A stretch of DNA of 64,000 nt. Origin: Clostridia bacterium (lineage in GTDB: Bacteria; Bacillota; Clostridia; RGIG6154). Below are positions 2,546-41,585 of the stretch, piece by piece. Position 1 is the first letter of the stretch; each line of letters opens with the position of its first letter. The translations under genes were made by a program, and so were the position numbers. The stretch is taken from assembly GCA_045605445.1 (NCBI GenBank), contig JAZUPZ010000007.1:2924-66923 (forward strand), written 5' to 3'. The notes under the pieces were generated by a model, which was not told the origin of the DNA, ran no database searches, and saw only the letters and a program-made list of their open reading frames with translations.

Positions 2546-2563
2546 AATTAAAGGAGAAATTAC

Positions 2564-15860: not shown

Positions 15861-15889
15861 TTGACACAAATTTACAAATAATGTATAAT
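15861..15889 (+). promoter_or_regulatory. Sigma-A-like promoter TTGACA-17-TATAAT
   Basis: Consensus -35/-10 with a 17 bp spacer directly upstream of the 15920 start. The ORF-track ATG at 15881 lies inside the -10 box. Confidence 0.55.
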
Positions 15890-15919
15890 AAATTAAGTAA
15901 ATTTTTCGGAGGAACAAGG

Positions 15920-17239: not shown

Positions 17240-17242
17240 TTT

Positions 17243-19940: not shown

Positions 19941-20003
19941 GGGGGATGTTAAAAAAGTCCGGAACGTCAAAAGGCTGTGTTTTCCCTATGAAAGACACAG
20001 TAA
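19941..20003 (+). repeat. C-type 60 bp repeat immediately after a stop codon. The second copy is inverted at 41756-41816.
   Basis: GGGGATGTTAAAAAAGTCCGGAACGTCAAAAGGCTGTGTTTTCCCTATGAAAGACAC matches the reverse complement at 41756-41816 at about 90% identity. Confidence 0.6.
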
Positions 20004-20029
20004 ATATAAAAAAATTTAACCAAATGTAG

Positions 20030-20068
20030 AAAAACCTCAATTTCTTGAGGTTTTTCCTTGTTTTTATG
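20030..20068 (+). terminator. Rho-independent terminator
   Basis: AACCTCAA...TTGAGGTT followed by a T-run. Confidence 0.65.
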
Positions 20069-20076
20069 CCTTTTGA

Positions 20077-20357
20077 CTACGAACAAACTTCACCTAACTC
20101 CGCGTAGCGTCGCAACCTTCGCTGTTAATTGAGCTTTTGCAAAGCACAAAGTTTACGCTCGGTTGCTCCTTTTCCCCATAAAGTCAATTGACTTTTTGGG
20201 GAAAAGGAAAAACAATGCAAAGAAGCGAAGTTTTGCATTTGTGCAAAACGTAGCAAGTCTGCTTTGTTTTGACGCGCGTTCGGGTTCCCACAAGCATAGC
20301 TTGTGGTTCAGTTTGTTCGTTCCAAACATTTTTTCCTATCCCCTTACGGGGTGAAGC
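20077..20357 (+). repeat. A-type modular repeat copy carrying a ~150 bp internal insertion rich in nested palindromes
   Basis: Same 5' module as 15603 (CTACGAACAAACTTCACCTAACTCCGCGTA) and same 3' module (GGTTCAGTTTGT...TTTTTTCCTATCCCCTTACGGGGTGAAG). The insert includes CCTTTTCCCC-ATAAAGTCAATTGACTTTTT-GGGGAAAAGG. Confidence 0.55.
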
Positions 20358-20476
20358 TGTTTAAAATTAAGTTTTTAAACAGCTTCTTTGTGTTTCTGTG
20401 CAAAAAATGGTACTTTGGTAAAATAGGGGATTGAAATTTATATCCCATGGTGTTAAACTTATACTACAACAGAAAA

Positions 20477-20676
20477 CACGGTTTTGCAGCAGTGCACATC
20501 CGTTTTTTAGAAAACACGGAGAGGGCAGCGAGTCGCTGCCTTGGGTTAGTTACCGGGGAACTTCGTTTCGCATCCGCGAAACGCCTCCCGGCATCGCTAC
20601 GACGAATAATAAATCATAATATGATTAACAAAATTCGCCTCCGCTCGCCGGGATAATATGTGCCGCAAAGCCGTGA
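20477..20676 (+). ncRNA. Putative retron non-coding RNA (msr-msd)
   Basis: a1 (CACGGTTTTGCAGCAGTGCAC, about 20477-20497) and a2 (GTGCCGCAAAGCCGTG, about 20660-20675) form a 13/15 bp inverted repeat bracketing ~160 nt. Inside is a long interrupted hairpin (CCGGGGAACTTCGTTTCGC-ATCC-GCGAAACGCCTCCCGG) plus the GGCAGCGA/TCGCTGCC and ATCATAATATGAT hairpins, directly upstream of the RT. Confidence 0.5.
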
Positions 20677-21773
20677 ACTGTAAAAAAGCAAAGGAGGGGG
20701 AACTGTTGAAAATTATAGGCGGAGCTGTAATTTTTGAGGAATGTGATTCTCATTTTGTTGAAAAGTTTACATTCCCAAAGGCAATGGAAATAGTTCATAA
20801 TTTTATCAGTACAAATTCCCATCCTTTTATTTTTGATACCTATCAGCTTTCTGATTTTATAAACGTAAGCAGAAAAAGGCTTTTTGTGCTTTCCCGCTTC
20901 AGGGAGGAGCACTATAAGGTTTTAAAAGTAATAAAGAAAAACGGGAAATACAGAACCCTTAAAATTCCCGATGAGGAGCTTAAAGATGTTCAGAAAAAAA
21001 TCTTAAGGCAGATTTTGCTTTATTATGATGTTTCTGAATATGCAACGGCGTATGAGAGGGGCTCAACTCTTTATAAAAATGCCGTGGTTCACAAGGGCAA
21101 AAAATATCTTCTGAAAATGGATATTTCCGATTTTTTTGACAGTATAACCTCCGATATGGTTCACGACAAGGTGTTCAACACAAAATATTTCCCAAAGCAT
21201 ATCGGCTCCCTGCTTACTCAGCTTTGCTGTAACGAGGGTTGTCTTCCTCAGGGAGCGCCTTCCTCACCGAAGCTTTCAAACATAGTTATGGCAGACTTTG
21301 ACGGAGCCATAGGAAGATGGTGTTCAAAAAAAGGGGTTTCCTATACAAGATATTGCGACGATTTAACCTTTTCTTCTGATGAGCCTCTTTACAACGTTTA
21401 TGTAAGAGTAAAATCAATGCTTGAGGAAATGGGCTTTGAGGTTAACGAAAATAAAACCGGATTTTTTACCAATGCCTGCCGCCAGAGCGTAACGGGACTT
21501 ACCGTTAACGAAAAGGTGAGGGTTTCAAGGGAGTATAAAAGAAAGCTCCGTCAGGAAATTTACTACACTTTAAAATACGGTCCTTCTGATGTTATCACAA
21601 AAGAGGATAAGAAGGAATTTGTGTTTTTCGGAGAACCGGAGATACAGACTTATATGGACTCACTTATAGGAAGAACGGCTTATGTTCTTCAGATAGAACC
21701 GGCGAATAAAAGCTTTGACGACTTTCTTAAAAAGCTTATAAAGCTGAAAAAAGAACTGAACAGGGAACAATAA
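20658..21773 (+). CDS. Retron-type reverse transcriptase
   Basis: QGAPSSPKLSNIVMADFD and YTRYCDDLTFS (the YxDD box) plus NENKTGFF...VTGLTVNEKVRVSRE align to retron Ec86-type RT motifs. The true start is probably the TTG near 20706, behind the RBS AAGGAGGGGG. Confidence 0.75.
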   Translation: MCRKAVNCKKAKEGELLKIIGGAVIFEECDSHFVEKFTFPKAMEIVHNFISTNSHPFIFDTYQLSDFINVSRKRLFVLSRFREEHYKVLKVIKKNGKYRTLKIPDEELKDVQKKILRQILLYYDVSEYATAYERGSTLYKNAVVHKGKKYLLKMDISDFFDSITSDMVHDKVFNTKYFPKHIGSLLTQLCCNEGCLPQGAPSSPKLSNIVMADFDGAIGRWCSKKGVSYTRYCDDLTFSSDEPLYNVYVRVKSMLEEMGFEVNENKTGFFTNACRQSVTGLTVNEKVRVSREYKRKLRQEIYYTLKYGPSDVITKEDKKEFVFFGEPEIQTYMDSLIGRTAYVLQIEPANKSFDDFLKKLIKLKKELNREQ

Positions 21774-21868
21774 AGCAACAGGCAACGGTAAATTTTATAA
21801 TAAACGGGAATATTGCGTAAAATTCACCCGAAATGTAATAAAATCTACAGAATTTTGACGTTAAAAGG

Positions 21869-21897
21869 TTGACAAATACGCTGTAAAGTGATATTAT
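21869..21897 (+). promoter_or_regulatory. Promoter TTGACA-17-TATTAT
   Basis: Read directly from the sequence, upstream of the small TM ORF. Confidence 0.45.
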
Positions 21898-21928
21898 AAA
21901 GTATATTATTTTCGGAGGTACGGAAAAG

Positions 21929-22168
21929 ATGACAGTTGTAAAATCAAATTTCAACACTTCATCTGAAGATGCAAAAACTTTTGCACCTTGTTCTTGTGCT
22001 GCTGAAACAATGAATAATAGCGTTTTTTCAGGCATTGCTCTTGCAATGTCTGTTTTATTATGCCTTTGCCTTGTTAATGTCCTTAGCATTTATGGCATAA
22101 TTACAGGCATTATTATACTAAACATAATTACAGGAAACAAATATGAAAAGGCAAAGAGTTTAAGTTAA
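21929..22168 (+). CDS. Small 2-TM membrane protein, candidate retron effector
   Basis: 79 aa with two hydrophobic helices (VFSGIALAMSVLLCLCLVNVL and IYGIITGIIILNIITG). 155 bp downstream of the RT. Confidence 0.35.
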   Translation: MTVVKSNFNTSSEDAKTFAPCSCAAETMNNSVFSGIALAMSVLLCLCLVNVLSIYGIITGIIILNIITGNKYEKAKSLS

Positions 22169-22179
22169 TTTTGCAGAGT

Positions 22180-22218
22180 TATGATTTTGACGGTTTTGCC
22201 TTTTCAGGGTAAAACCGT
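22180..22218 (+). terminator. Putative terminator
   Basis: ACGGTTTT...AAAACCGT stem followed by TTTTT. Confidence 0.4.
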
Positions 22219-22238
22219 TTTTGATTGAAGGAGACAAA

Positions 22239-23033
22239 ATGGAAATAATTGATTTTCATGCACATATATATCCCGAAAAAATAGCAGAAAAGGCAGTTTC
22301 AAGCGTTGGCGAGTTTTATAATATTAAAATGGACGGCAGAGGAACGGCAAAAACTCTTATTGAAGAAAACAAAGAGGTTTCTGCTTTTGTGGTTCACTCG
22401 GTTGCGGTTGCGCCGAAAACCGTTGTGGCAATTAACGATTTTATTTCATCAGAATGCGAAAAACACAGCAATTTTTACGGGTTTGGAACAATGCATGCCG
22501 ATTTTGAAAACAAAATAGAAGAAACAAAAAGAATGGTTGAGCTGGGGCTTAAAGGCGTTAAAATTCATCCCGACACTCAGATGTTCAATATGGATGATAA
22601 AAAAATGTTTGAGCTTTACGATTTTCTCAGAGAGGAAAAAATCCCCCTGCTTATTCATTGCGGCGATTACCGTTACGATTATTCTCATCCGAGACGACTT
22701 AAAAAAATTCTCAGACTTTTCCCGGGGCTTGTTGCCATAGGGGCGCACTTCGGCGGATGGTCTATGCACGACCTTGCTCTTGAATACCTGAAAGACGAAA
22801 ATTGCTATCTCGACACATCGAGCTCCTTTTTCGTAATGGGAATGCAAAGGGCTAAGGAGCTTATAAGAATTTACGGCGCCGAAAGAATGGTTTATGGAAC
22901 CGACTTCCCCATGTGGGACGGAAAAACCGAGCTGGAAAGATTTATGAGTATGAATCTTACCGACGAGGAAAATGAATTGATTTTAAGCAGAAATGCTAAA
23001 AAAATATTAAACATTAAGGAGTGTAAAAAATGA
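22239..23033 (+). CDS. Amidohydrolase-2 family metal-dependent TIM-barrel hydrolase
   Basis: MEIIDFHAHIYPE N-terminal HxH motif. RBS AAGGAGA precedes the ATG at 22239. Confidence 0.6.
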   Translation: MEIIDFHAHIYPEKIAEKAVSSVGEFYNIKMDGRGTAKTLIEENKEVSAFVVHSVAVAPKTVVAINDFISSECEKHSNFYGFGTMHADFENKIEETKRMVELGLKGVKIHPDTQMFNMDDKKMFELYDFLREEKIPLLIHCGDYRYDYSHPRRLKKILRLFPGLVAIGAHFGGWSMHDLALEYLKDENCYLDTSSSFFVMGMQRAKELIRIYGAERMVYGTDFPMWDGKTELERFMSMNLTDEENELILSRNAKKILNIKECKK

Positions 23034-24418
23034 AAAAAATCAAAATCACAGACATTACTCTTAAGAAGCTTTCACAGGAACGTGAGACCTCTCTACTTTT
23101 CCGTGAAAAGACAGCTGTTGCCGCTTGTGCAGATGCGTTGGGAGTTGATGCTGTTGAAATAGCTCCTGTAAAAAATGTAAGAGAAGATACCATTATTTAT
23201 AAAACAATTTCCCAGAAGGTTAAAAATGCAGCGGTTGCAATTCCCGTTGGTTTTACAACAGAAGAGGTTGCAGTTGCCTGGGAATGTGTTAAAGAGGCTG
23301 CAAAGCCCCGCCTTCAGGTAGAGGTTCCCGTTTCAACGGTTCAGATGGAATATACATATCATATCAAGGCTGAAAAAATGCTTCTTAAAATTGCAGAGCT
23401 TGTAAAGGCTGCAAAGGAGCTTTGCGACGATGTGGAATTCTGTGCACTCGATGCAACAAGAGCCGATGAGGCTTTCCTTATCGCTGCGGCAAAAGAGGCA
23501 GAAGCACAGGGGGCAGGAATTGTTACAGTGTGCGACGATGCGGGAGCATTTCTTCCCGAAACTGTTGCAGAGCTTGTTTCAAAAGTTAAAGAGGCTGTAA
23601 GCGTTCCTGTTTATGCTCAGGTTTCCGATAAAATCAGCATGGGAGTTGCCTCCTCTGTTGCGGCAATCAGAAAGGGCGTTGACGGACTTAAATGTGCCAT
23701 GGCGGGCAAAGACGTTGTTTCAACAGGCAGACTTTCAGATGCTATGACCGCCTGCACCGCTGAAATTGGCGCAGAAACAAATCTTAACAATACGAAAATT
23801 CATGCAAGCACAGCTGATTTGCTGGCAAGCATTAACCATCAGGATTATGAAACCGACCCCACTGTAAGCGAAAAGAAGAAAATTCTTCTTGATTCAGAAA
23901 GCACTCTGGCTCAGGTAGCTCAGGCGGCTCAGGTTTTAGGCTACGACCTTTCCGATTCCGACTGCGGAAATGTTCACAAAGCCCTTCTTAACATTTGTGA
24001 AAAGAAGGATGCCGTTGGTGCAAAGGAGCTGGAGGCTTTAATTGCAAGCTCCGCTATGCAGGCTCCTTCAACCTACCATCTTGAAAGCTACACAACAAAC
24101 AGCAGTAACCTTTCAAGCTCAATGTCTCAGGTTACCTTAAAGAACGGCGATGAAATCATCTGCGGTGTAAGCACAGGAGACGGCCCTATCGATTCAGCTT
24201 TCAGAGCAATAGAACAGTGTATCGGTCACCACTACGAGCTTGACGATTTCCAGGTTCAGTCGGTTACCGAAGGAAAAGAAGCTCTTGGCTCTGCGGTTGT
24301 AAAGCTCCGCAACAACGGAAAGCTTTACTCGGGCAACGGAATTTCAACCGACATTGTTGCCGCAAGCATAAGAGCATATATAAACGCTCTTAACAAAATA
24401 GTGTTTGAGGAGGCATAA
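23030..24418 (+). CDS. LeuA/homocitrate-synthase-family homolog that has lost the catalytic residues but keeps the C-terminal LeuA allosteric domain
   Basis: The C-terminus (YELDDFQVQSVTEGKEALGSAVVKL...ISTDIVAASIRAYINALNKI) matches the LeuA dimer/regulatory domain. The N-terminal barrel lacks RDGxQ (it has TLKKLSQERE) and lacks HxHND (it has VSDKISMG). Confidence 0.5.
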   Translation: MKKIKITDITLKKLSQERETSLLFREKTAVAACADALGVDAVEIAPVKNVREDTIIYKTISQKVKNAAVAIPVGFTTEEVAVAWECVKEAAKPRLQVEVPVSTVQMEYTYHIKAEKMLLKIAELVKAAKELCDDVEFCALDATRADEAFLIAAAKEAEAQGAGIVTVCDDAGAFLPETVAELVSKVKEAVSVPVYAQVSDKISMGVASSVAAIRKGVDGLKCAMAGKDVVSTGRLSDAMTACTAEIGAETNLNNTKIHASTADLLASINHQDYETDPTVSEKKKILLDSESTLAQVAQAAQVLGYDLSDSDCGNVHKALLNICEKKDAVGAKELEALIASSAMQAPSTYHLESYTTNSSNLSSSMSQVTLKNGDEIICGVSTGDGPIDSAFRAIEQCIGHHYELDDFQVQSVTEGKEALGSAVVKLRNNGKLYSGNGISTDIVAASIRAYINALNKIVFEEA

Positions 24419-24426
24419 TGTAAAAA

Positions 24427-26886
24427 ATGAAAATTGTATTTTCGACAAAAAATGTAAACTGTGCATCTTTCATTAACCTGTGCCGCTATGCTTATGATTA
24501 CGGATTTTCCGGATTTGAAATATATGATGCTGTTAAAGAACGTAATCAGCATCACGACAGTATATTGCGACGCGAGCGCACAGCTGATGCAAAAAGAAAG
24601 CTTATTAACAGAAATCTTTCCGTTTCGGCGCTTCGTATGCCATATCCTGTTGAAAGTGCAGATACAACTTCGGAAACGGTTTTAAAATATGTTGAAATGG
24701 CGGCATCCTCCGGCGTTTCATATGTAATAGTAAGAGTTGAAGAGGAAACTCCTTTTGAGGCTTTAAAGGAAAAGCTCTCAGCCGCAATTGCCCGTGCAGA
24801 GAAAAGCGACGTTGGAATTTTGTTTGAAACGGTAGGCTTTCTGGCAGATACGGAAAACGTAATTAAAATAATCAATTATTTTTCTTCTGCGGCAATCGGC
24901 GCTTCCTGGAACGTAAGAGGAACTTACTTCGGAGCGGGAGAAACTGCAGAGGCTACAATTAAAACTCTCGGCGCATATATAAAATATGTCCGTCTGGGAG
25001 ATATGAAGGATTCAAAAACAGTTTTAATCGGCGAGGGAACTCTTCCCGTTGAAAATTTAATCAATGCTCTTTCCTCTCTTAACTTTGACGGATTCATCTG
25101 CGCCGCATGGAATGAAGATATTAACGATGCAGACATTGTTCTTACTCATTTTACAAACTATATCTCTTCCTTAAGCAGAGAAAAGAAGAGCTTTGAACAC
25201 GCTTATTATAACAGAGCAAAAACAGGCACCTTTGTCTGGAAAAAATACGACGTTATCGATGCAACCTTCTCAGAGGTTTTAGATACAATGGCGGAAAAAT
25301 ATCCCGACCAGTATGCCTTTAAATATCCGACTCTTGATTATACAAGAACCTATGCTCAGTTCCGCCGCGATGTTGACGAATGTGCCGCAGCCCTTATATC
25401 CCTTGGGGTAAAGGCGGGCGACCACGTTGCAATCTGGGCAACAAACGTTCCCCAGTGGTATGTAACCTTCTGGGCAACAACAAAAATCGGTGCCGTTTTA
25501 GTTACGGTAAATACCGCATATAAAATTCACGAAATTGAATATCTTTTAAAGCAGTCTGATACTCATACTCTGGTTATGATTGAATACTGCAAGGATATAA
25601 ACTATAAGGAAATCATAAAAGAGCTTTGCCCCGAGCTTGAAAATCTTAATCCGGGCGATCCTCTTTACTCGAAGAATCTTCCATTCTTAAGAAACGTAGT
25701 AACGGTAGATTTTTCAATGGAAGGCTGTCTTACCTGGGAGCAGATGCTTTCCCGCTCAGCCCTTGTTCCGAGGGAAGAGGTGAGAAGAAGAGCCTCTCTT
25801 GTAAAGCCCGACGATGTCTGCAATATGCAGTACACCTCGGGAACCACGGGCTTCCCCAAAGGGGTTATGCTTACTCACAGAAACATTGTTAACAACGGTA
25901 AAACAATAGGCGACAGAATGGACCTTTCAACGGCAGACAGAATGATGATTCAGGTGCCGATGTTCCATTGCTTCGGAATGGTTCTTTCAATGACTTCAAT
26001 GATGACTCACGGCGGAACCCTTTGTCCTATTCCGTACTTTTCGCCGAAATCCTCTCTTGCCTGCGTAAACGACGAGAGAATAACCTGCTTCAACGGCGTT
26101 CCTACAATGTTTATTGCAATGTTTAATCATCCTGATTTTGCCAAAACCGATTTTTCTTATATGAGAACGGGTATTATGGCAGGTGCCAACTGCCCTGCAG
26201 ACTTAATGCGCCGCGCGGCAGATGAAATGAATATGAAGGAAATTATTTCCGTATACGGTCAGACAGAGGCTTCTCCCGGTTGTACCATGGGCGAGGTTAA
26301 TGAAGATATTGACCACCGTGTTGAAACAGTCGGAAGTCCCTTCCCGGGAGTTGAATGTAAGGTAATCGACCCGGAAACAGGCGAAGAAGTTCCCGACGGT
26401 GAAAACGGCGAATTCGTTGCAAGAGGCTTTAACATAATGAAGGGCTATTACAAAATGCCCGAGGCAACCGCTCAGGCAATCGACTCTGAAGGCTGGCTTC
26501 ATTCGGGAGATATCTGCTGCAGAACTCCCGACGGCTACTACAAGGTAACCGGCAGACTTAAAGATATGATTATACGAGGCGGCGAGAATCTTTACCCCCG
26601 TGAAATTGAAGAATTTTATCTTACTCATCCGAAAATAAGAGACGTTCAGGTTGTGGGCGTTCCCGATGAGAAATACGGCGAAGAATGCTGTGCCTGGGTA
26701 ATTCTTCACAAGGGTGAAAGTGCCGACGAAAACGAAATGAAGGAATTCGGAAACGAGTTTATTGCCCGTCATAAGGTTCCAAGATACTTTGTTTTTGTTG
26801 ATGCCTTCCCAATGAACGCGGCAGGAAAAATTCTTAAATATAAAATGCGCGAAGAAGCAATTAAAATGTTAAAATTAAACGGTTAA
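24427..26886 (+). CDS. Fusion of a xylose-isomerase-like TIM-barrel domain and an AMP-dependent acyl-CoA synthetase/ligase
   Basis: 819 aa. Residues ~1-260 look like a sugar-phosphate isomerase/epimerase TIM barrel. The C-terminal ~560 aa is an AMP-binding enzyme (YTSGTTGFPKGVMLTHRN, with a GYYK-containing C-terminal domain). Confidence 0.6.
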   Translation: MKIVFSTKNVNCASFINLCRYAYDYGFSGFEIYDAVKERNQHHDSILRRERTADAKRKLINRNLSVSALRMPYPVESADTTSETVLKYVEMAASSGVSYVIVRVEEETPFEALKEKLSAAIARAEKSDVGILFETVGFLADTENVIKIINYFSSAAIGASWNVRGTYFGAGETAEATIKTLGAYIKYVRLGDMKDSKTVLIGEGTLPVENLINALSSLNFDGFICAAWNEDINDADIVLTHFTNYISSLSREKKSFEHAYYNRAKTGTFVWKKYDVIDATFSEVLDTMAEKYPDQYAFKYPTLDYTRTYAQFRRDVDECAAALISLGVKAGDHVAIWATNVPQWYVTFWATTKIGAVLVTVNTAYKIHEIEYLLKQSDTHTLVMIEYCKDINYKEIIKELCPELENLNPGDPLYSKNLPFLRNVVTVDFSMEGCLTWEQMLSRSALVPREEVRRRASLVKPDDVCNMQYTSGTTGFPKGVMLTHRNIVNNGKTIGDRMDLSTADRMMIQVPMFHCFGMVLSMTSMMTHGGTLCPIPYFSPKSSLACVNDERITCFNGVPTMFIAMFNHPDFAKTDFSYMRTGIMAGANCPADLMRRAADEMNMKEIISVYGQTEASPGCTMGEVNEDIDHRVETVGSPFPGVECKVIDPETGEEVPDGENGEFVARGFNIMKGYYKMPEATAQAIDSEGWLHSGDICCRTPDGYYKVTGRLKDMIIRGGENLYPREIEEFYLTHPKIRDVQVVGVPDEKYGEECCAWVILHKGESADENEMKEFGNEFIARHKVPRYFVFVDAFPMNAAGKILKYKMREEAIKMLKLNG

Positions 26887-26904
26887 TATAAAGGAGAGAA
26901 AAAA

Positions 26905-27963
26905 ATGGATATTAAAATTACAAAAACAACTAATCCAAAAGCAAAACCAACAGGAAAATTAGGCTTCGGTAAAGTGTTTACTGACCATATGTTCGTAATG
27001 AACTACACCGAAGGTAAAGGCTGGCACGATGCAAGAGTGGTACCTTATGAAAAGCTTACTCTTGACCCGTCAGCAATGGTTTTCCATTACGGTCAGGAAA
27101 TGTTTGAAGGTCTTAAGGCTTATAAGGGCGCAGACGGAAAGGTAAGACTTTTCAGACCTGATATGAATGCAAAAAGAACTAACGATACTAACAAACGTCT
27201 TTGCATTCCTCAGCTTCCCGAAGAAGATTTCGTAGAAGCAGTTAAGGCAGTAGTTAAGGTTGACGAAGACTGGGTTCCCACAGAAGACGGAACATCGCTT
27301 TATATCAGACCTTTCATTATTGCAACAGACGAATTTTTAGGAGTTGCTCCTTCAAAAACATATCTCTTTATTATAATTCTTTCACCAAGCGGAGCTTACT
27401 ATGAAAGCGGTCTTGCTCCCGTTGGTATCTGGATTGAAGACGACTATGTAAGAGCAGTAAGAGGCGGAATGGGCTTTGCAAAAACAGGCGGAAACTATGC
27501 AGCAAGCCTTGCAGCTCAGGTTAAGGCTCACGACGACGGTTATTCTCAGGTTCTCTGGCTCGACGGCGTTGAAAGAAAATATATCGAAGAGGTTGGCGCA
27601 ATGAACATCTTCTTCAAAATTGACGGAAAAATCGTTACACCAATGCTCAACGGAAGTATTCTTCCCGGTATTACAAGAAACTCTGTAATTCAGCTCTGCA
27701 AAAACTGGGGATTTGAAGTTGAAGAAAGAAAGGTAAGCGTTGATGAGCTTATCGAAGCTCAGAAGAGCGGAAAGCTTGAAGAATGCTTCGGAACAGGTAC
27801 AGCGGCAGTTATTTCTCCTGTAGGAAAGCTCCGTTATAAAGACGATGTTATGCTTATCAACAACAATGAAATCGGCGAAATCAGCCAGAAGCTCTATAAT
27901 ACCATTACCGGTATTCAGTGGGGCAAAATTGAGGATGAAAACAAATGGACGGTAGAAGTTTAA
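26905..27963 (+). CDS. ilvE: Branched-chain amino acid aminotransferase
   Basis: 352 aa PLP fold-type IV enzyme. FGKVFTDHM is the BCAT N-terminal signature. Confidence 0.85.
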   Translation: MDIKITKTTNPKAKPTGKLGFGKVFTDHMFVMNYTEGKGWHDARVVPYEKLTLDPSAMVFHYGQEMFEGLKAYKGADGKVRLFRPDMNAKRTNDTNKRLCIPQLPEEDFVEAVKAVVKVDEDWVPTEDGTSLYIRPFIIATDEFLGVAPSKTYLFIIILSPSGAYYESGLAPVGIWIEDDYVRAVRGGMGFAKTGGNYAASLAAQVKAHDDGYSQVLWLDGVERKYIEEVGAMNIFFKIDGKIVTPMLNGSILPGITRNSVIQLCKNWGFEVEERKVSVDELIEAQKSGKLEECFGTGTAAVISPVGKLRYKDDVMLINNNEIGEISQKLYNTITGIQWGKIEDENKWTVEV

Positions 27964-28637
27964 AAAGAATATCTGTCTTTGCAGGTCACTACGGAAGCGG
28001 GAAAACAAATATTGCGGTAAATTACGCAATAATGCTTAAGGCTGAAGGCAAGGAGGTTTCAATAACCGACCTTGACATTGTAAATCCCTATTTCAGAACA
28101 AAGGACTCTCAGGAGGTTCTTGAGGAAAAGGGAATAAGGCTTATTTCTTCTCCTTATGCAAATACCAATGTAGATACTCCTGCCCTCCCCGGCGATGCTT
28201 ATACTGCTTTTGAAAACAGGGAAATGTATGCGGTTGTTGACGTGGGCGGCGACGACAGAGGCGCTCTTGCCCTGGGAAGATATGTTCCCCAAATGGTGGA
28301 AGAGAACAACTACGAAATGTTTTTCGTCATAAATAAACACAGATTTTTAACCTCCGATGCAAAATCAACGGTTGAAGTAATGAGAGAAATCGAAGAGGCG
28401 GCAGGGGTTAAGTTTACAGCAATAGTAAATAATTCAAACATCGGTGAGGAAACAACCAAAAAAACGGTTCTCGATTCCGTTGCCTATGCAAACGAGGTTG
28501 CAGAGCTTACCGGTTTAGATGTGAAAATGACAACAGTCGACCGAAGACTTTTCGGGGAACTGGAGTCGCAAATTAAAAATTTACAACCAATCGATTTGTA
28601 TGTAAGACAATCCTGGTTGAGAAAAGAGGTAAAATAA
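27945..28637 (+). CDS. P-loop ATPase (MinD/ParA/CooC-like)
   Basis: GHYGSGKTN Walker A motif. 230 aa, operonic with the VOR subunits. Confidence 0.5.
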   Translation: MDGRSLKRISVFAGHYGSGKTNIAVNYAIMLKAEGKEVSITDLDIVNPYFRTKDSQEVLEEKGIRLISSPYANTNVDTPALPGDAYTAFENREMYAVVDVGGDDRGALALGRYVPQMVEENNYEMFFVINKHRFLTSDAKSTVEVMREIEEAAGVKFTAIVNNSNIGEETTKKTVLDSVAYANEVAELTGLDVKMTTVDRRLFGELESQIKNLQPIDLYVRQSWLRKEVK

Positions 28638-28840
28638 TGGCAAAAGTTTCATTTAATGAAAATCTTTGTAAAGGCTGCGGACTTTGCGTAACAGCCTGCC
28701 CGAAGAAAATTGTGGAATTAAAAGATACTCTTAATGCAAAGGGTTACCGTGTTGCAGGCGTTGAAAAACAGAGCGAATGCATTGGCTGTGCATTCTGCGC
28801 AACTATGTGTCCCGACTGCGTAATTACGGTTGAAAAGTAA
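28637..28840 (+). CDS. vorD: 2-oxoacid:ferredoxin oxidoreductase delta subunit (2x[4Fe-4S] ferredoxin)
   Basis: 67 aa with two CxxCxxCxxxCP motifs. Confidence 0.8.
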   Translation: MAKVSFNENLCKGCGLCVTACPKKIVELKDTLNAKGYRVAGVEKQSECIGCAFCATMCPDCVITVEK

Positions 28841-28853
28841 GGAGGAAAAACAA

Positions 28854-29924
28854 ATGTCAGAAAAAGTATTGATGAAGGGCAACGAGGCTATGGCTGAAGC
28901 TGCTATTATGGCAGGCTGCAGACATTACTTCGGATACCCCATTACCCCGCAAACAGAGGTTGCGGCATATATGTCAAAAAGAATGCCTAAAATTGAAGGC
29001 GGCGTATTCCTGCAGGCTGAAAGTGAAATTGCGGCAATAAATATGGTTATCGGTGTAGCTTCAACAGGTAAGAGAGTAATGACCTCTTCCTCAAGCCCCG
29101 GAATTTCCCTTAAGAGTGAAGGTCTTTCATATCTTGCAGGCTGCGACCTTCCTGCTCTTATTGTTAACGTTCAGAGAGGCGGCCCCGGACTTGGTGGAAT
29201 TCAGCCTTCTCAGTCAGACTATTTCCAGGCTACAAAGGGCGGCGGACACGGCGATTTCCATATGCTGGTTCTCGCTCCTGCTTCAATTCAGGAAATGGTT
29301 GACCTTACCTTCAAGGGCTTCGACCTTGCAGAAAAATACAGAATGCCCGCAATGCTCCTTGCCGACGGAACAATGGGCCAGATGATGGAACCTGTTTCTC
29401 TCGATTCAGGCGTTGTAAATGAATACGACAAATCCTGGGCACTTACAGGAACAAAGGGCGAAAGAAAACGCAACATTGTAAACTCTCTCTTTATCAAACC
29501 CGAAGAGCTTGAGGTTCTTAATATTGAAAGATATAAGAGATATGAAATTATCGAAAAAACCGAAGCAATGTACGACGAATATCTTATGGAAGATGCAGAA
29601 TACTGCGTAGTAGCATTTGGTATTGCGGCAAGAGTTGCTCAGAATGCAATTGACGAAGCAAGAAAGAAGGGCATTAAAATCGGTATGATTAGACCAATTA
29701 CCCTCTGGCCGTTCCCGAAGGATGTTCTTAACAAAGCTGCTGACAAGGTTAAAGCATTTATTTCAGTTGAGCTCAATATGGGACAAATGCTTGAAGACGT
29801 TGAGCTTGCAATTCGTTGCAAGAAGCCCGTTCACCTTTGCTGCAGAACAGGCGGTATGATTCCTACAACCCAGAACGTTCTGGATAAAATTGAGGAAGTA
29901 GTAAAAATGGGAGGTGCTGAATAA
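28854..29924 (+). CDS. vorA: 2-oxoacid (2-ketoisovalerate):ferredoxin oxidoreductase alpha subunit
   Basis: KorA/VorA-family pyruvate-flavodoxin domain. RBS GGAGGA. Confidence 0.8.
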   Translation: MSEKVLMKGNEAMAEAAIMAGCRHYFGYPITPQTEVAAYMSKRMPKIEGGVFLQAESEIAAINMVIGVASTGKRVMTSSSSPGISLKSEGLSYLAGCDLPALIVNVQRGGPGLGGIQPSQSDYFQATKGGGHGDFHMLVLAPASIQEMVDLTFKGFDLAEKYRMPAMLLADGTMGQMMEPVSLDSGVVNEYDKSWALTGTKGERKRNIVNSLFIKPEELEVLNIERYKRYEIIEKTEAMYDEYLMEDAEYCVVAFGIAARVAQNAIDEARKKGIKIGMIRPITLWPFPKDVLNKAADKVKAFISVELNMGQMLEDVELAIRCKKPVHLCCRTGGMIPTTQNVLDKIEEVVKMGGAE

Positions 29925-30655
29925 TGACAGTATTTGAAAAACCGAAGGCTCTTACAGATGCAGTTCTTCACTATTGCCCCGGTTGTACCCACGGTATTAT
30001 TCACAGGCTTGTTGCTGAAGCAATTGACGAGCTTGGAATTGCCGGCAGAACAATTGGTGTTGCATCGGTAGGATGCTCAGTATTTACATACAATTATTTT
30101 GATGTTGATATGGTTCAGGCGGCTCACGGTAGAGCTCCGGCTGTAGCAACAGGCGTTAAACGTTCCGATCCGAACAATATCGTTTTCACCTATCAGGGCG
30201 ACGGCGACCTTGCGGCTATCGGAACAGCTGAAACAGTTCACAGCGCTGCAAGAGGCGAAAATATTACAGTTATTTTCGTAAACAACGCAATTTACGGTAT
30301 GACAGGCGGTCAGATGGCTCCGACAACTCTCCCCGGTCAGGTAACTCAGACCTCTCCCTACGGAAGAGATGTTGAAAAGGTTGGTTATCCTATAAAGGTT
30401 TGCGAAATGCTTTCTCAGGTTGACGGCGCAACATACTTAGAAAGAGTTGCAGTTAACAACGTTAAAAATGTAAAAGCTGCAAAAGCGGCAATTAAAAAAG
30501 CATTCCAGAACCAGATTGAAGGAAAAGGCTTCTCTTTGGTTGAAGTTCTTTCAACCTGTCCTACAAACTGGGGTATGGCTCCCGACAAGGCTATTAACTG
30601 GCTGGAGGAAAATATGTTACCGTATTATCCTTTGGGTGTCTATAAAGATAAATAA
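29924..30655 (+). CDS. vorB: 2-oxoacid:ferredoxin oxidoreductase beta subunit (TPP-binding)
   Basis: 243 aa with the TPP motif GDGDLAAIG. Confidence 0.8.
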   Translation: MTVFEKPKALTDAVLHYCPGCTHGIIHRLVAEAIDELGIAGRTIGVASVGCSVFTYNYFDVDMVQAAHGRAPAVATGVKRSDPNNIVFTYQGDGDLAAIGTAETVHSAARGENITVIFVNNAIYGMTGGQMAPTTLPGQVTQTSPYGRDVEKVGYPIKVCEMLSQVDGATYLERVAVNNVKNVKAAKAAIKKAFQNQIEGKGFSLVEVLSTCPTNWGMAPDKAINWLEENMLPYYPLGVYKDK

Positions 30656-30661
30656 TGTCGG

Positions 30662-30752
30662 CTAAATTTGTCCATATTGCACCTTTGCCTGCCCCCTCGA
30701 GTACACAAAGTACACTTTGGGCAGACAAATGCACAATCTGAATCAAATTTAT
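30662..30752 (+). repeat. B-type modular repeat copy inserted between vorB and vorC
   Basis: AAATTTGTCCATATTGCAC-CTTTGCCTGCCCC-CTCGAGTACACAAAGTACAC-TTTGGGCAGACAAATG-CACAATCTGAATCAAATTT. Confidence 0.6.
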
Positions 30753-30917
30753 TTCGACTTAAACAGTCAGTTTTCTTTGAAAGCTGAAGCGAATAGATAA
30801 TAGTTCGGGCAGAATTTCTTTGAGATAAAAGCAAATCCGAAGGTTTTGCACGTCAACTATTAACTATTCGTTATTCACTATTAACTATTCGTTAATTTTC
30901 GGAAAGGAATAATAACA

Positions 30918-31454
30918 ATGAATAAACAAATTTTAATCGCCGGCTTCGGCGGACAGGGAATTTTGTTCTCAGGAAAATTCCTTGCATATGAAGGCCTTAT
31001 CGACGGTAAAGAGGTTTCCTGGCTTCCTTCTTATGGTCCTGAAATGAGAGGCGGTACCGCAAACTGCAGCATTATTTTAAGCGATGCTAAAATCGGCTCA
31101 CCAATCGTTGACCAGCCCGACATTTTAATTGCAATGAATGCACCTTCTTTTGATAAATATATTAACGATGTTAAGCCCGGCGGACAGGTATTTATCGACA
31201 GCTCCCTTATCGACCAGAAATGCGAAAGAAACGATATTGAGGCTTATTATATCCCCGCAACAAAAATTGCATCGGATGAAGGACTTACAGGTCTTGCAAA
31301 TATGATTATGATTGGTCTTCTTATTAAAAAGGCAGACATTATGCCTTATGAAAATATTGAAAAGGCAATGAAAAAAGTTGTTCCTGCCAAAAAGCAGAAT
31401 TTGTTCGACCTTAATATGAAGGCAATAGAAATTGGTTATAACTACGAAGCGTAA
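30918..31454 (+). CDS. vorC: 2-oxoacid:ferredoxin oxidoreductase gamma subunit
   Basis: 178 aa with the gamma-subunit family N-terminus ILIAGFGGQG. Confidence 0.8.
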   Translation: MNKQILIAGFGGQGILFSGKFLAYEGLIDGKEVSWLPSYGPEMRGGTANCSIILSDAKIGSPIVDQPDILIAMNAPSFDKYINDVKPGGQVFIDSSLIDQKCERNDIEAYYIPATKIASDEGLTGLANMIMIGLLIKKADIMPYENIEKAMKKVVPAKKQNLFDLNMKAIEIGYNYEA

Positions 31455-31468
31455 AGGGGTTTATAGTT

Positions 31469-32020
31469 ATGAATAATCAGATTAAAGATATAGGTATGCG
31501 TCTTGCTTTTCTTCGTGAGGAGGCTGAATTTTCAGAAAAGGAAATGGCTGAAAAATTAGGCGTTGACGAGGAAACCTACAAAGCCTACGAAAACGGGGAA
31601 AAAGACTTTTCCTTCAGTGTTATTTACAATGCGGCTGAAATTTTAGGCGTTGACGTTCTCGACCTTATCAGCGGAAGCGCGCCAACCCTTTCAATGTGCT
31701 GTATGGTGAAAAAGGGCAAGGGCTACTCCGTTAAAAGAGAAGACGAATACGACTATAAGCATCTGGCGTACACCTTCCGCAACAAAAAAGCGGAGCCCTT
31801 CCTTGTAACAATAACTCCCGACGATAAGCCTCCTGTTATGCACGGGCACGAGGGTCAGGAATTCAACTATGTAATTTCGGGAAAAATGATGCTTTATATA
31901 GGCGACATTTCATACGAGCTTTCAAAAGGCGACAGTGTTTATTTTGATTCAAGCGTACCTCATGCAGAGGTAGCCCTCGGCGATAAGGAAGCTCAGTTTA
32001 TCGCCGTAGTTATTAAATAA
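31469..32020 (+). CDS. XRE-family HTH regulator with a C-terminal cupin domain
   Basis: N-terminal Cro/C1 HTH plus a cupin with HGHEGQE...H motifs. Confidence 0.65.
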   Translation: MNNQIKDIGMRLAFLREEAEFSEKEMAEKLGVDEETYKAYENGEKDFSFSVIYNAAEILGVDVLDLISGSAPTLSMCCMVKKGKGYSVKREDEYDYKHLAYTFRNKKAEPFLVTITPDDKPPVMHGHEGQEFNYVISGKMMLYIGDISYELSKGDSVYFDSSVPHAEVALGDKEAQFIAVVIK

Positions 32021-32044
32021 AACACTTAAGCGGAGGAGATTCCA

Positions 32045-33745
32045 ATGGCTATATATGAAAAATATGTGGGCGCTTCAAGAGACGAGTTTTTGTCTCTTAA
32101 AGATGCTCAGAAAAACTTTAAACTTGCATATCCCGACGATTTCAACTTTGCCTACGATGTAGTTGACGAGCTGGCAAAAACAAAGCCCGACAAGCTTGCA
32201 ATGCTCTGGGTATCTAAAAACGGAGAAGAAAAACGCTTTACCTTTAAAGACCTTATGGTTTATTCAAACAAAGCGGCAAACTACTTTAATTATATGGGAA
32301 TTAAAAAGGGAGATGCGGTTCTTCTTGTTCTCAAAAGAAGCTACTTCTTCTGGTTCTGTATGCTGGGGCTTCATAAAATCGGAGCCGTTGCGGTTCAGGC
32401 AACCAATATGCTTAAGGCAAAGGACTACGTTTACCGTTGCAATGCGGCAAAAATAAAGGCCGTTGTTTTAACGGGCGATTCCGACGAAACAGAAGAGTTC
32501 GACAAAATGCAGGACTCTTACGAAACTGTTGAAAAGAAGTTTGTTATAGGTCACAAAAAGGCGGAAGGCTGGATTGACTTTGAAGAGGGAATAGAGCTTG
32601 CAAATGCCGACTGGGTAAGACCCAAAGGCAAGCAGGGCACAACTGCCGAAGATACAATGCTTATGTCCTTCTCTTCGGGAACCTCGGGCTATCCTAAAAT
32701 TATTACTCATAATTTCAAATATCCTTTAGGTCATATAATGACAGGTGTTTTCTGGCACAGAGTTGTAGATGGCGGAATTCACTTTACCATTTCCGATACC
32801 GGCTGGCTTAAATCCCTCTGGGGTAAATTTTACGGTCAGTGGTTCGGAGAATCGGCAGTTTTTGTTTACGACTTTGAAAAGTTCGACGGTGCCGACATTC
32901 TTTCAAAAATGGAAAAATATAATATAACAACCTTCTGCGCGCCTCCTACAATGTACCGTATGATGCTGCAGAATGAAGTTAAAAATTACAATCTTTCTTC
33001 TCTTGTTCACTGCTGTACGGCAGGAGAGGCGCTTAATCCGGAAATCTTCAACAGATGGAAGGAGGCAACGGGGCTTAAAATTTATGAGGGCTTCGGTCAG
33101 ACCGAAACAACCCTTTGTATTGCAACAATTTATCCCTGGTCAGAGCCTGTTCCCGGCGCAATCGGCTATGCCGTTCCCGGCTATGATGTTCACATTCTTG
33201 ATGAAAACGACGAGTCTTGCCCAAGAGGTGCAACGGGAGAAATAAGCATAAGAGTTTTAAGCAAATCAAGAAAAACCTGCGGTCTTCTTGATACTTATAA
33301 TATGAGTGCAGAGGACACCGCCGTTTCCCTTCACGACGGCTTTTATCATACCGGCGACACAGCTTACCGTGATGAAACCGGAATGTTCCGTTATGTTGGC
33401 AGAAATGACGACGTTATAAAATCCTCAGGTTACCGTATAGGGCCCTTTGAAATTGAAAGCGTTCTTGTGGAGCATCCTGCCGTTGTTGAGGTTGCCGTAA
33501 CCGGCGTTCCCGACAAGGTGAGAGGCTTTGCGGTAAAGGCAACAATTGTTCTTGCCAAAGGCTACGAGCCTTCCGAAGAGCTTACAAAAGAGCTTCAGAA
33601 ATATGTTAAAGACAATACGGCTCCTTATAAATATCCAAGAGTGGTTGAATATGTTCAGGCACTTCCAAAAACCTTTAACGGTAAAATCCGCCGTCGTGAA
33701 ATAAGAGATAACGATGCGGAAAATTACAAAGCAGCGGAGAAATAA
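32045..33745 (+). CDS. AMP-forming acyl-CoA synthetase (medium/short-chain type)
   Basis: 566 aa AMP-binding enzyme with SSGTSGYPK and a C-terminal ANL domain. Confidence 0.7.
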   Translation: MAIYEKYVGASRDEFLSLKDAQKNFKLAYPDDFNFAYDVVDELAKTKPDKLAMLWVSKNGEEKRFTFKDLMVYSNKAANYFNYMGIKKGDAVLLVLKRSYFFWFCMLGLHKIGAVAVQATNMLKAKDYVYRCNAAKIKAVVLTGDSDETEEFDKMQDSYETVEKKFVIGHKKAEGWIDFEEGIELANADWVRPKGKQGTTAEDTMLMSFSSGTSGYPKIITHNFKYPLGHIMTGVFWHRVVDGGIHFTISDTGWLKSLWGKFYGQWFGESAVFVYDFEKFDGADILSKMEKYNITTFCAPPTMYRMMLQNEVKNYNLSSLVHCCTAGEALNPEIFNRWKEATGLKIYEGFGQTETTLCIATIYPWSEPVPGAIGYAVPGYDVHILDENDESCPRGATGEISIRVLSKSRKTCGLLDTYNMSAEDTAVSLHDGFYHTGDTAYRDETGMFRYVGRNDDVIKSSGYRIGPFEIESVLVEHPAVVEVAVTGVPDKVRGFAVKATIVLAKGYEPSEELTKELQKYVKDNTAPYKYPRVVEYVQALPKTFNGKIRRREIRDNDAENYKAAEK

Positions 33746-33748
33746 AAA

Positions 33749-41577: not shown

Positions 41578-41585
41578 TGGAATGC

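Follow-up and report, generated by a model that had tools for sequence, protein, structure and literature searches.

Introduction

For many anaerobes of the rumen and gut, branched short-chain fatty acids act as growth factors, and the same acids are given as feed additives. Work by Allison, Bryant and co-workers in the 1960s–80s, using biochemistry and labelling in cultured Prevotella, Bacteroides, Ruminococcus and Megasphaera, reportedly established that rumen and gut anaerobes turn these acids into valine, isoleucine and leucine by reductive carboxylation. A gene-level or gene-cluster description of this reductive route did not emerge from our literature search. Among characterized proteins, MbcS of Staphylococcus aureus is a proven isobutyrate/2-methylbutyrate-CoA synthetase that handles isovalerate poorly and supplies fatty-acid synthesis alongside Bkd (PMC10026030), and the LeuA_dimer domain of isopropylmalate synthase binds leucine for feedback control (PMC9860122).

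Here we describe a gene cluster of a Clostridia bacterium (RGIG6154; assembly GCA_045605445.1, contig JAZUPZ010000007.1, forward strand 2,924–66,923). This stretch of 64,000 nt is referred to below as the window, and all positions are counted within it. The cluster (22239–34450, + strand) encodes an amidohydrolase, a LeuA-like protein (pseudo-LeuA), a TIM-barrel::AMP-ligase fusion (TIM::ligase), IlvE, a P-loop NTPase, a four-subunit VOR-type oxidoreductase, an XRE-cupin regulator, a second ligase (Lig2) and a LytTR protein. The predicted steps are those of the classical route: the acid is activated to its CoA ester, carboxylated in a ferredoxin-dependent reaction and transaminated. To these the cluster adds a fixed pseudo-LeuA, a TIM domain and a P-loop NTPase, plus the amidohydrolase, and it belongs to uncultured Clostridia. 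We propose that region 21869–34450 is one modular operon for making valine, leucine and isoleucine from scavenged external branched short-chain fatty acids (isobutyrate, 2-methylbutyrate and isovalerate), with pseudo-LeuA as an amino-acid sensor acting on one of the ligases. Taken as a whole, we hold this proposal to be slightly better than an even bet.

Organization of the cluster

Pfam and NCBIfam matches recovered every gene that a first-pass annotation of this DNA had named, on the + strand and where it had placed them (Table 1), including the second acyl-CoA synthetase with its XRE-cupin and LytTR neighbours at 31469–34450. The tight packing it had described also holds, with overlaps of 4, 19 and 1 nt and gaps of 8 and 18 nt at the gene junctions through the beta subunit.

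Table 1. Features of the cluster and its upstream region (positions in the window).
Feature	Positions	Strand	Basis or remark
Sigma-70-like promoter, TTGACA-17-TATTAT with TG	21869–21897	+	11/12 match; best of region
Small ORF (leader gene), 79 aa; DAKxFAPCSCA motif, then hydrophobic segment	21929–22168	+	Protein-level conservation in L082 and L083
14-bp hairpin plus U-run, terminator/attenuator-like	22189–22229	+	−19.8 kcal/mol, z = −2.7
Amidohydro_2 metal hydrolase/decarboxylase-like protein	22239–23033	+	PF04909, 100 bits
Pseudo-LeuA, HMGL-like barrel plus LeuA_dimer	23030–24418	+	Pfam domains
TIM::ligase, AP_endonuc_2 TIM barrel fused to AMP-binding/AMP-binding_C	24427–26886	+	Pfam
N-terminal xylose-isomerase-like TIM domain; remodelled pocket E134, N162, R164, R189, D192	24427–25161	+	PF01261, 47.6 bits versus threshold 31.1
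AMP-forming acyl-CoA ligase domain	25264–26886	+	Nearest PRK12583, 677 bits, cut-off 832
Branched-chain amino acid aminotransferase IlvE, class IV, type II	26905–27963	+	NCBIfam equivalogs
Cysteine-free SIMIBI-class P-loop NTPase, 230 aa	27945–28637	+	Walker A, fold
VOR delta subunit, 2x[4Fe-4S] ferredoxin-like	28637–28840	+	Two CxxCxxCxxxCP motifs
VOR alpha subunit, POR_N plus PFOR_II, VorB family	28830–29924	+	PF01855, PF17147, NF005507
VOR beta subunit, TPP-binding	29924–30655	+	PF02775; GDG...NN motif plus four Cys
Beta–gamma spacer, ~263 nt	30656–30917		Dispersed intergenic repeat plus duplicated 17-nt motif
VOR gamma subunit, POR domain	30918–31454	+	PF01558
XRE-HTH plus cupin regulator	31469–32020	+	Pfam; paired with Lig2
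Lig2, second AMP-forming short-chain acyl-CoA synthetase	32045–33745	+	Best model NF047394 MbcS
LytTR DNA-binding protein	33749–34450	+	Same position in L082

The cluster transcript likely starts at the promoter upstream of the small ORF. A related locus, L082, carries a comparable TTGACA...TATCAT promoter 5′ of a homologous small ORF, and in both L082 and a second related locus, L083, the small-ORF homologues sit 5′ of the amidohydrolase gene; Pfam and PADLOC searches with the small ORF returned no match. The hairpin that follows it stops ~10 nt short of the first enzyme gene's ribosome-binding site, and a transcript entering the operon would have to cross this terminator/attenuator-like element. 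L082 has the same layout with a different hairpin sequence. Within the beta–gamma spacer, the 17-nt motif occurs at 30857–30873 and 30878–30894, 21 nt apart. The spacer is an insertion rather than a conserved part of the cluster, because it is missing from the otherwise identical L082, where beta and gamma lie 14 nt apart.

Recurrence and fixed gene pairs

The gene set recurs, in several arrangements, in the 80 species-level genomes that we examined of at least 591 matches, and its arrangement is therefore not due to chance. The carriers are metagenome-assembled genomes of uncultured Clostridia from ruminant and other animal guts, and not the known Ruminococcus that require branched-chain volatile fatty acids, to which the first-pass annotation had pointed. 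Its description of some genes as unusual partners needs qualification: they are present, but they are not incidental. Pseudo-LeuA lies directly 5′ of TIM::ligase in 74 of 75 loci, and the P-loop gene lies directly 5′ of vorD in 30/30 loci and in L082–L084. XRE-cupin is likewise found directly 5′ of Lig2 in all 53 cases, and in L081 and L082 the two are fused.

TIM::ligase neighbourhoods show at least four gene orders and orientations. At the 39 loci with 8 kb or more of sequence on either side of TIM::ligase ('well-flanked'), VOR (22/39), Lig2 (28/39) and IlvE (14/39) occur within reach (~10 kb), whereas ten loci have none of the three, so that the pseudo-LeuA/TIM::ligase pair evidently can work apart. 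Conversely, locus L083 has the order Amido-IlvE-Ploop-VOR-XREcupin-Lig2 and lacks TIM::ligase. Because of L083 and these ten loci, the ligase that generally accompanies VOR and IlvE is the XRE-cupin-linked Lig2, and not TIM::ligase; the ligase–VOR–aminotransferase core proposed earlier is real, intact and conserved.

Beyond the cluster families, no family of genes is shared by more than 8 of the 80 loci. Phosphotransacylase, kinase, CoA-transferase and ADP-forming synthetase genes were not recurrent across these loci, and genes of fatty-acid synthesis (fabH, acp and others) neither recur near the cluster in the 80 loci nor occur in the 64-kb window. AMP-forming ligases, up to three per locus, are the only recurrent acyl-CoA-handling enzymes.

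Two TIM-barrel proteins without catalytic metal sites

Pseudo-LeuA shares with LeuA and citramalate synthase the domain order of HMGL-like barrel, linker and LeuA_dimer, and its fold is nearest to isopropylmalate synthase structures. In contrast to those enzymes, it is paired with an acyl-CoA ligase and lacks their metal site (the Asp of RDGxQ and the two His of HxH). Alignment to the isopropylmalate synthases 3EWB, 3EEG and 3RMJ showed that RDGEQ is replaced by KKLSQ and HxH(D/N)D by QVSDK; in 79/79 orthologs the three ligand positions (one Asp and two His) hold non-ligand residues, and the old site is variable. The protein falls below the cut-off of all 24 NCBIfam LeuA/CimA/NifV models (best score 240 versus 532 bits), which bears out its earlier description as degenerate LeuA-like; NCBI names these proteins 'hypothetical'. 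The LeuA_dimer domain is nevertheless recognizable over positions 4–130 of 131 (PF08502, 112.6 bits) and strongly conserved, with a mean pairwise identity among orthologs of 76% versus 56% for the barrel, although the AlphaFold model is poor in this regulatory domain (pLDDT < 50). We propose that pseudo-LeuA descends from an isopropylmalate synthase, having lost catalysis and kept its end-product-binding domain as a putative amino-acid sensor.

The fused ligase has intact adenylation motifs (YTSGTTGFPKG ... GRLKDMIIRGGEN ... AAGK), with the Ser/Thr/Gly-rich P-loop-like motif, hinge motif and C-terminal catalytic Lys expected of an ANL ligase, and its ligase domain shows 88% mean pairwise identity (n = 81 orthologs). 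A characterized close relative of the fusion was not among the matches. Comparison of its TIM domain with canonical fusions and PDB relatives shows that the xylose-isomerase-like metal-ligand set (Glu / Asp(-x-His) / His / Glu, strands 4–8) is incomplete: the first Glu is kept, and the others are changed (Asp to Asn162, His to Arg164, His to Arg189 and Glu to Ala227), a His-to-Arg change also being seen in the alignment with 4kw2. N162, R164 and R189 are near-invariant at these former ligand positions in the pseudo-LeuA-associated clade. The canonical TIM::AMP-ligase fusions, themselves uncharacterized and present in at least 505 metagenome loci, have the same two-domain architecture and 50–56% full-length identity, but their E / D-x-H-H / H-x-x-D / E metal site is retained and no conserved gene context surrounds them; a LeuA-like neighbour was found in none of the 80 canonical loci examined for context. 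Together, these comparisons suggest that pseudo-LeuA and the TIM domain of the ligase are former enzymes without catalytic metal sites that now probably act as regulators.

Lig2, the core enzymes and the accessory proteins

Lig2 matches the Pfam AMP-binding and AMP-binding_C families, and its adenylation motifs are intact (SSGTSGYPK ... GRNDDVIKSSGYR ... NGK), which marks it as an ANL ligase. The MbcS equivalog NF047394 is its best-scoring model, yet at 424 bits against a cut-off of 850 Lig2 is not an MbcS ortholog by the NCBI criterion. Both are AMP-forming, and MbcS scavenges isobutyrate and 2-methylbutyrate; MbcS differs in feeding fatty-acid synthesis and in having no link to an oxidoreductase, aminotransferase or XRE-cupin (PMC10026030). 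The substrates of both cluster ligases would, by inference, be branched short-chain acids. No receiver domain was detected in the N-terminal domain of the LytTR protein.

IlvE passes the equivalog cut-offs of NF009897 (517 versus 307 bits) and TIGR01123 (427 versus 250 bits). The delta, alpha, beta and gamma subunits all carry the domains and cofactor motifs expected of VOR-type four-subunit oxidoreductases. The genes previously labelled vorA and vorB are genuine and are more correctly named alpha, which carries POR_N, and beta, which binds TPP, but a VOR-named cut-off is reached by alpha alone (VorB subfamily NF005507, 538 versus 399 bits), the beta, gamma and delta subunits scoring below every curated NCBIfam cut-off. 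Alignment to NF005507 begins at residue 10 of alpha, and translation probably begins at the ATG at 28854. Conserved linkage to IlvE gives indirect support to a putative activity of the oxidoreductase on branched-chain 2-oxoacids or acyl-CoAs.

The locus differs from other VOR-type systems in the cysteine-free SIMIBI NTPase gene 5′ of delta; to our knowledge, described VOR operons lack such a gene. Its assignment to the SIMIBI class follows from an invariant Walker A motif (GHYGSGKT) and from the fold, the best Foldseek matches being SRP54/FtsY and ATPase-type HypB (probability 1.0, TM ~0.5; model pLDDT 84). An Mrp/ApbC/NBP35 Fe-S carrier or a NifH-like ATPase was considered and rejected, as the protein has 0 cysteines to provide cluster ligands; ApbC/Mrp models match it in the P-loop region alone. 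The NTPase presumably helps to assemble the oxidoreductase or acts as another dedicated accessory to it. The amidohydrolase, in which HxH, H, H and D motifs are readable, has as its closest solved relative the uncharacterized protein 3IRS. It occurs in 17/39 well-flanked loci, at variable positions and as two paralog types, and may be an optional helper of the cluster.

Discussion

From the gene identities, intact or lost motifs and fixed pairings described above, we infer substrates, a flux direction, a mode of regulation, an interaction between pseudo-LeuA and the ligase and a role for the NTPase. In the proposed route, the two AMP-forming ligases would spend ATP to form branched acyl-CoA esters, the sole irreversible step. 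The VOR-type oxidoreductase would then carry out ferredoxin-dependent reductive carboxylation to 2-oxoisovalerate, 2-oxo-3-methylvalerate and 2-oxoisocaproate, and IlvE would transaminate these to valine, isoleucine and leucine. Lig2, under XRE-cupin control, would be the general entry point, and TIM::ligase a second one, perhaps for isovalerate, a poor substrate of MbcS. Pseudo-LeuA would gate TIM::ligase by acting on or through its remodelled, metal-free TIM domain, and the NTPase would serve the oxidoreductase as its dedicated assembly or accessory factor. A more specific version, which we regard as possible but doubtful, is a feedback switch built from two TIM-barrel former enzymes, in which pseudo-LeuA binds leucine or another branched-chain amino acid by its allosteric domain and shuts the branched-acid (isovalerate?) ligase via the TIM domain, the NTPase being a new factor that is obligatory for the production or operation of the carboxylating oxidoreductase.

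By sequence, flux could run towards amino-acid assimilation, branched-lipid primer supply or catabolism. VOR and IlvE reactions are reversible, and the cluster could instead be a primer-supply hub in which IlvE and VOR run oxidatively, taking under anaerobic conditions the place of an aminotransferase and a branched-chain ketoacid dehydrogenase, and the ligases scavenge external branched acids. Both arms would then yield branched acyl-CoA for FabH and iso-/anteiso-fatty acids, with amino acids as source and not product. Consistent with this, two ligases and a 2-oxoacid oxidoreductase converge on one acyl-CoA pool, and MbcS, the best match of Lig2, has this role beside Bkd in S. aureus (PMC10026030). 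We nevertheless consider such a hub rather unlikely, since no fabH, acp or other fatty-acid synthesis gene recurs nearby or lies in the window, and a sensor derived from a leucine-biosynthesis enzyme suits biosynthetic feedback better. Primer supply is also compatible with assimilation, because one acyl-CoA pool can serve both ends.

A catabolic role, of the kind shown for other gut anaerobes, seems very improbable for the cluster. Transamination and oxidative decarboxylation would then convert branched-chain amino acids to acyl-CoAs for fermentation to branched short-chain fatty acids, with the ligases reversed or otherwise used. In the papers found by our search, gut bacteria do run 2-oxoacid:ferredoxin oxidoreductases catabolically (for example, 10.1101/401489 and PMC11984666). 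The exits that catabolism would use (phosphotransacylase/kinase, ADP-forming synthetase or CoA-transferase) recur in none of the 80 loci, however, which instead carry up to three AMP-forming ligases. Such ligases normally run towards the thioester. As AMP-forming ligases recur and phosphotransacylase, kinase and CoA-transferase do not, the gene content favours acid activation over acid production. Together with the match of Lig2 to MbcS, this lends partial support to the branched-acid assimilation suggested at first pass. It is also quite unlikely that the pseudo-LeuA/TIM::ligase pair is unrelated to branched-chain metabolism and only loosely co-located, for example activating another carboxylate held in the TIM pocket. 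The solitary canonical fusions in varied contexts, the ten well-flanked loci with the pair but without VOR, IlvE or Lig2, and the missing characterized relative would fit this idea; against it, VOR lies within ~10 kb in 22/39 loci in several independent arrangements, far above the expectation for unlinked genes, and the partner protein descends from a branched-chain pathway enzyme whose end-product-binding domain is kept.

On the assimilation reading, the cluster is a complete, testable candidate gene set for the reductive route in very abundant uncultured animal-gut Clostridia, and it names the likely entry ligases. It also brings forward two accessory functions that have not been studied, that of an NTPase linked to a ferredoxin oxidoreductase and that of a pseudoenzyme pair with a possible part in amino-acid feedback. 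If the feedback switch holds, end-product control would have been transferred from de novo synthesis to salvage. If confirmed, the cluster would allow consumers of branched fatty acids among gut bacteria to be predicted from metagenomic surveys, and would add a clear case of a biosynthetic enzyme turned regulator.

Gene content and leader region of the cluster

The first-pass annotation had described overlapping or abutting genes from an amidohydrolase through vorB of a 2-oxoacid:ferredoxin oxidoreductase (VOR), followed at 31469-34450 by an XRE-cupin gene, a second AMP-forming ligase (Lig2) and a LytTR gene. The gene run was borne out, with a 263-nt spacer ahead of the gamma subunit as its sole interruption, and the three following genes are all present on the plus strand. 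This spacer is missing in L082, a comparison locus that is otherwise identical, and is therefore a recent insertion within the operon. It holds an intergenic repeat, roughly 90 nt long, with copies elsewhere in the window at 92-95% identity, and a 17-nt motif, CTATTAACTATTCGTTA, that occurs twice, 21 nt apart.

Features of the cluster and of the surrounding DNA (window positions)
Feature	Position	Strand	Remarks
Full-length OLE (ornate large extremophilic) RNA	1911-2546	+	467 bits against Rfam RF01071
188-aa ORF	2564-3130		3′ of OLE RNA
dxs	3151-4968		
TIR-domain protein (CAP12/Pycsar-type TIR), then nucleoside hydrolase	15881-18034	+	PADLOC match weak
Inverted repeats	20079-20094, 20305-20320		
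Long hairpins	20162-20213, 20209-20270		flanked by the inverted repeats
Retron-type reverse transcriptase	20658-21773	+	NCBIfam retron St85 family, 237 vs 235 bits; PADLOC RT_Ec107-like, 376 bits
Best promoter match of the region	21869-21897		
Small ORF, 79 aa	21929-22168		DAKxFAPCSCA motif and hydrophobic tail
14-bp hairpin with U-run	22189-22229		stops just short of amidohydrolase ribosome-binding site
Amidohydrolase_2 protein	22239-23033	+	
HMGL-like + LeuA_dimer protein (pseudo-LeuA)	23030-24418	+	
Xylose-isomerase-like TIM barrel::AMP-forming acyl-CoA ligase (fusion ligase)	24427-26886	+	819 aa
Class IV aminotransferase (IlvE)	26905-27963	+	above NCBIfam branched-chain aminotransferase equivalog cut-offs
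P-loop NTPase	27945-28637	+	230 aa
Oxidoreductase delta subunit	28637-28840	+	two CxxCxxCxxxCP motifs
Oxidoreductase alpha subunit	28830-29924	+	above curated VorB family cut-off, 538 vs 399 bits
Oxidoreductase beta subunit	29924-30655	+	TPP motif and four cysteines
Beta-gamma spacer	30656-30917		
Oxidoreductase gamma subunit	30918-31454	+	
XRE-HTH/cupin protein	31469-32020	+	
Second AMP-forming ligase (Lig2)	32045-33745	+	
LytTR protein	33749-34450	+	
Spacer-repeat copies	41584-41612, 44172-44259, 44283-44367, 53938-53972		
TIR + TPR protein	49011-51224	+	PADLOC match weak

Ahead of the amidohydrolase gene, the layout of promoter, small ORF and hairpin is repeated in L082 with a homologous ORF, and the small ORF also occurs in a second comparison locus, L083. 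Every transcript entering the operon must cross the hairpin, which suggests attenuation-type control. Rfam searches at the gathering threshold returned only the unrelated OLE RNA and, at E ≤ 1, nothing credible in 19900-22300, and hence no T-box or known leader upstream of the cluster.

Genes for a phosphate transporter and for the retron reverse transcriptase precede the cluster; a surface protein gene and genes for pectin and sugar acids follow it. Inverted repeats and hairpins 5′ of the reverse transcriptase gene have the arrangement expected of an msr/msd RNA, and no effector gene is recognisable adjoining the retron (20079-21773 region). The small ORF of the leader was considered as a retron effector and rejected, because its homologues precede the amidohydrolase gene in L082 and L083, both of which are without a retron. 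Elsewhere in the window, the OLE RNA, the 188-aa ORF and dxs are followed by genes for an FtsJ/TlyA-like methyltransferase, NAD kinase, ArgR and RecN, and the two TIR proteins are possible defence genes.

Conservation of the gene set in gut Clostridia

No record matched the window's own fusion ligase exactly; thousands of close relatives exist in public data, every one from uncultured Clostridia. A scan with one genome per species yielded at least 591 relatives, of which the best 80 were analysed by mapping the window proteins onto their loci to score neighbours. These 80 MAGs were recovered from gut samples (yak, sheep, goat, deer, buffalo, human and others) and bear the labels Oscillospiraceae, Acutalibacteraceae, Christensenellaceae, Ructibacterium or Candidatus Egerieisoma. 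On this point the first-pass annotation, which had looked to rumen and gut cellulolytic Clostridia, is amended: the carriers are uncultured gut Clostridia. Two contigs binned as Spirochaetales (L068 and L074) also carry the pseudo-LeuA/fusion-ligase pair, 69-70% identical to that of the window; horizontal transfer and mis-binning are both possible explanations.

Among the 80 best loci, the LeuA-like gene lies immediately 5′ of the fusion ligase in 74 of the 75 with enough sequence, the P-loop gene immediately 5′ of delta in 30/30, and the XRE-cupin gene immediately 5′ of all 53 Lig2 copies. IlvE stands either ahead of the P-loop gene or behind gamma, and the amidohydrolase, of which there are two paralog types, shifts position between loci. 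In the 39 loci whose fusion ligase is flanked by 8 kb or more on each side, Lig2 is within reach in 28 (often in two copies), the oxidoreductase in 22, the amidohydrolase in 17 and IlvE in 14; VOR, Lig2 and IlvE are all absent within reach in 10. Gene order in L082 is that of the window, gene by gene, LytTR included, and L083 carries amidohydrolase, IlvE, P-loop, VOR, XRE-cupin and Lig2 without the LeuA-like/fusion-ligase pair. The modules show at least four different orders and orientations, which argues that proximity is selected and that no single layout was inherited. Clustering of neighbouring ORFs in the 80 best loci revealed no further recurrent partner (the next family occurs in 8 loci), so the gene set of the window is the entire conserved set. 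The partners regarded as unusual at first pass are indeed present; they are not incidental, being fixed parts of the system (74/75 and 30/30).

The P-loop NTPase has thousands of homologs, none of them named, and an invariant Walker A motif, GHYGSGKT. Its confidently predicted structure (pLDDT 84) most resembles SRP/FtsY GTPases and ATPase-type HypB, with TM about 0.5, and the fold search returned the generic SIMIBI class only; the protein is a divergent member of this class of NTPases, in which assembly of metal centres is a common task. A role as Fe-S carrier or NifH-like reductase is ruled out, as the 230-aa protein has no cysteine. Its strict placement ahead of delta points to a part in making or operating the oxidoreductase.

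Direction of the pathway

IlvE and VOR-type enzymes are both reversible, and the ligases are the sole cluster enzymes with a preferred direction. Adenylation motifs are complete in both the fusion ligase and Lig2. The best curated match of Lig2, at 424 bits and under the 850-bit equivalog cut-off, is the methylbutyryl-CoA synthetase MbcS, which in S. aureus activates external 2-methylbutyrate and isobutyrate, and isovalerate poorly (PMC10026030). No phosphotransacylase, acyl kinase, ADP-forming synthetase or CoA-transferase is recurrent near the cluster in the 80 best loci. Ligases as the only acyl-CoA partners, together with the MbcS match, fit a pattern in which external branched acids would join the acyl-CoA pool via the ligases, the VOR-type oxidoreductase would carboxylate the branched acyl-CoA reductively, and the 2-oxoacids would then be transaminated. 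We infer a direction toward amino acids. The same enzymes could also make branched acyl-CoA primers for lipid synthesis, the role that MbcS and Bkd play in S. aureus; this supply is compatible with the amino-acid route. Neither fatty-acid nor ilv/leu biosynthesis genes were found within the 64-kb window.

The assimilation of branched-chain volatile fatty acids (BCVFA) proposed at first pass is thus partly supported: the assignment of its ligase-VOR-IlvE core stands, with the main ligase partner corrected to Lig2 (L083). Acid activation, reductive carboxylation and transamination have been known in rumen bacteria since the classical labelling studies, and the cluster is a variation on this already known pathway type; a gene-level account of BCVFA reductive carboxylation was sought in the literature, and nothing relevant came up. 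In L081 (14225-16531, minus strand) and L082 (1-1480, minus strand), an XRE-HTH/cupin regulator and an MbcS-like ligase are fused into a single chain of some 760 aa, an architecture that recalls ligase/repressor proteins of the BirA kind.

A proposed pair of recycled enzymes

The LeuA-like protein had been called degenerate, and alignments to three solved isopropylmalate synthases agree: RDGEQ is replaced by KKLSQ and HxH(D/N)D by QVSDK, so that all three metal ligands are lost. By these motifs the protein is a pseudoenzyme. Its scores lie far under the cut-offs of all LeuA, citramalate and homocitrate synthase models, NCBI names proteins of this type hypothetical, and the former ligand positions hold non-ligand, partly variable residues across 79 orthologs. 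Mean pairwise identity is 56% in the barrel and 76% in the C-terminal LeuA_dimer domain, which contains long invariant stretches such as GDGPIDSAFRAIE. LeuA_dimer is the allosteric domain through which isopropylmalate synthase binds leucine (PMC9860122). The AlphaFold model (mean pLDDT 61) has a confident barrel, nearest to isopropylmalate synthase structures, and a regulatory domain below 50 with a low-confidence beta-beta-beta-alpha repeat pattern; this domain by itself gave no useful match to PDB sequences. The literature searched likewise yielded no relevant report of a pseudoenzyme derived from LeuA.

The TIM domain of the fusion ligase is remodelled. Among 1.8 billion cluster representatives searched, a small family of 460 matches emerged. 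It includes distant TIM::ligase fusions, and Pfam gives their TIM domains far higher scores. In alignment, these canonical fusions keep Glu, Trp-Asp-x-His-His, Val-His-x-Lys-Asp and Leu-Glu-Trp, whereas the window protein has Glu134, Trp-Asn162-Val-Arg164-Gly, Val-Arg189-Leu-Gly-Asp192 and Ala-Ala227-Trp at these positions. The His-to-Arg change is also apparent against PDB 4kw2; the domain by itself gave one marginal match to PDB sequences. Within the clade the replacements are near-invariant (N162 79/81, R164 80/81, R189 79/81), indicating a pocket rebuilt rather than left decaying. Sequence change is faster in the TIM domain than in the ligase part (62% versus 88% identity).

Canonical fusions, a widespread and uncharacterised bifunctional family of digesters, bioreactors and guts, were found at no fewer than 505 metagenome loci, 80 of which (L085-L164) were fetched for context. 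None of the 80 has a LeuA-like neighbour, so a lost TIM metal site and an acquired pseudo-LeuA partner go together; nor do they share a conserved neighbour of any kind that might point to the ancestral chemistry. The nearest solved relatives, with weak scores, are Art22, MJ1311 and AsbF. In another distant relative, P0355 (776 aa), the TIM metal site looks lost in alignment, as does the Ser/Thr/Gly-rich adenylation motif (PTYRFDGDVCAV replaces YTSGTTGFPKGV); it may be a wholly inactive version.

The fusion ligase may be the entry point for isovalerate, poorly served by an MbcS-like enzyme. Only tentatively, and with more doubt than confidence, do we propose that pseudo-LeuA senses a branched-chain amino acid and controls the fusion ligase via its TIM domain. 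The most novel element of the system is this recycled pair of dead enzymes, which may carry feedback control.
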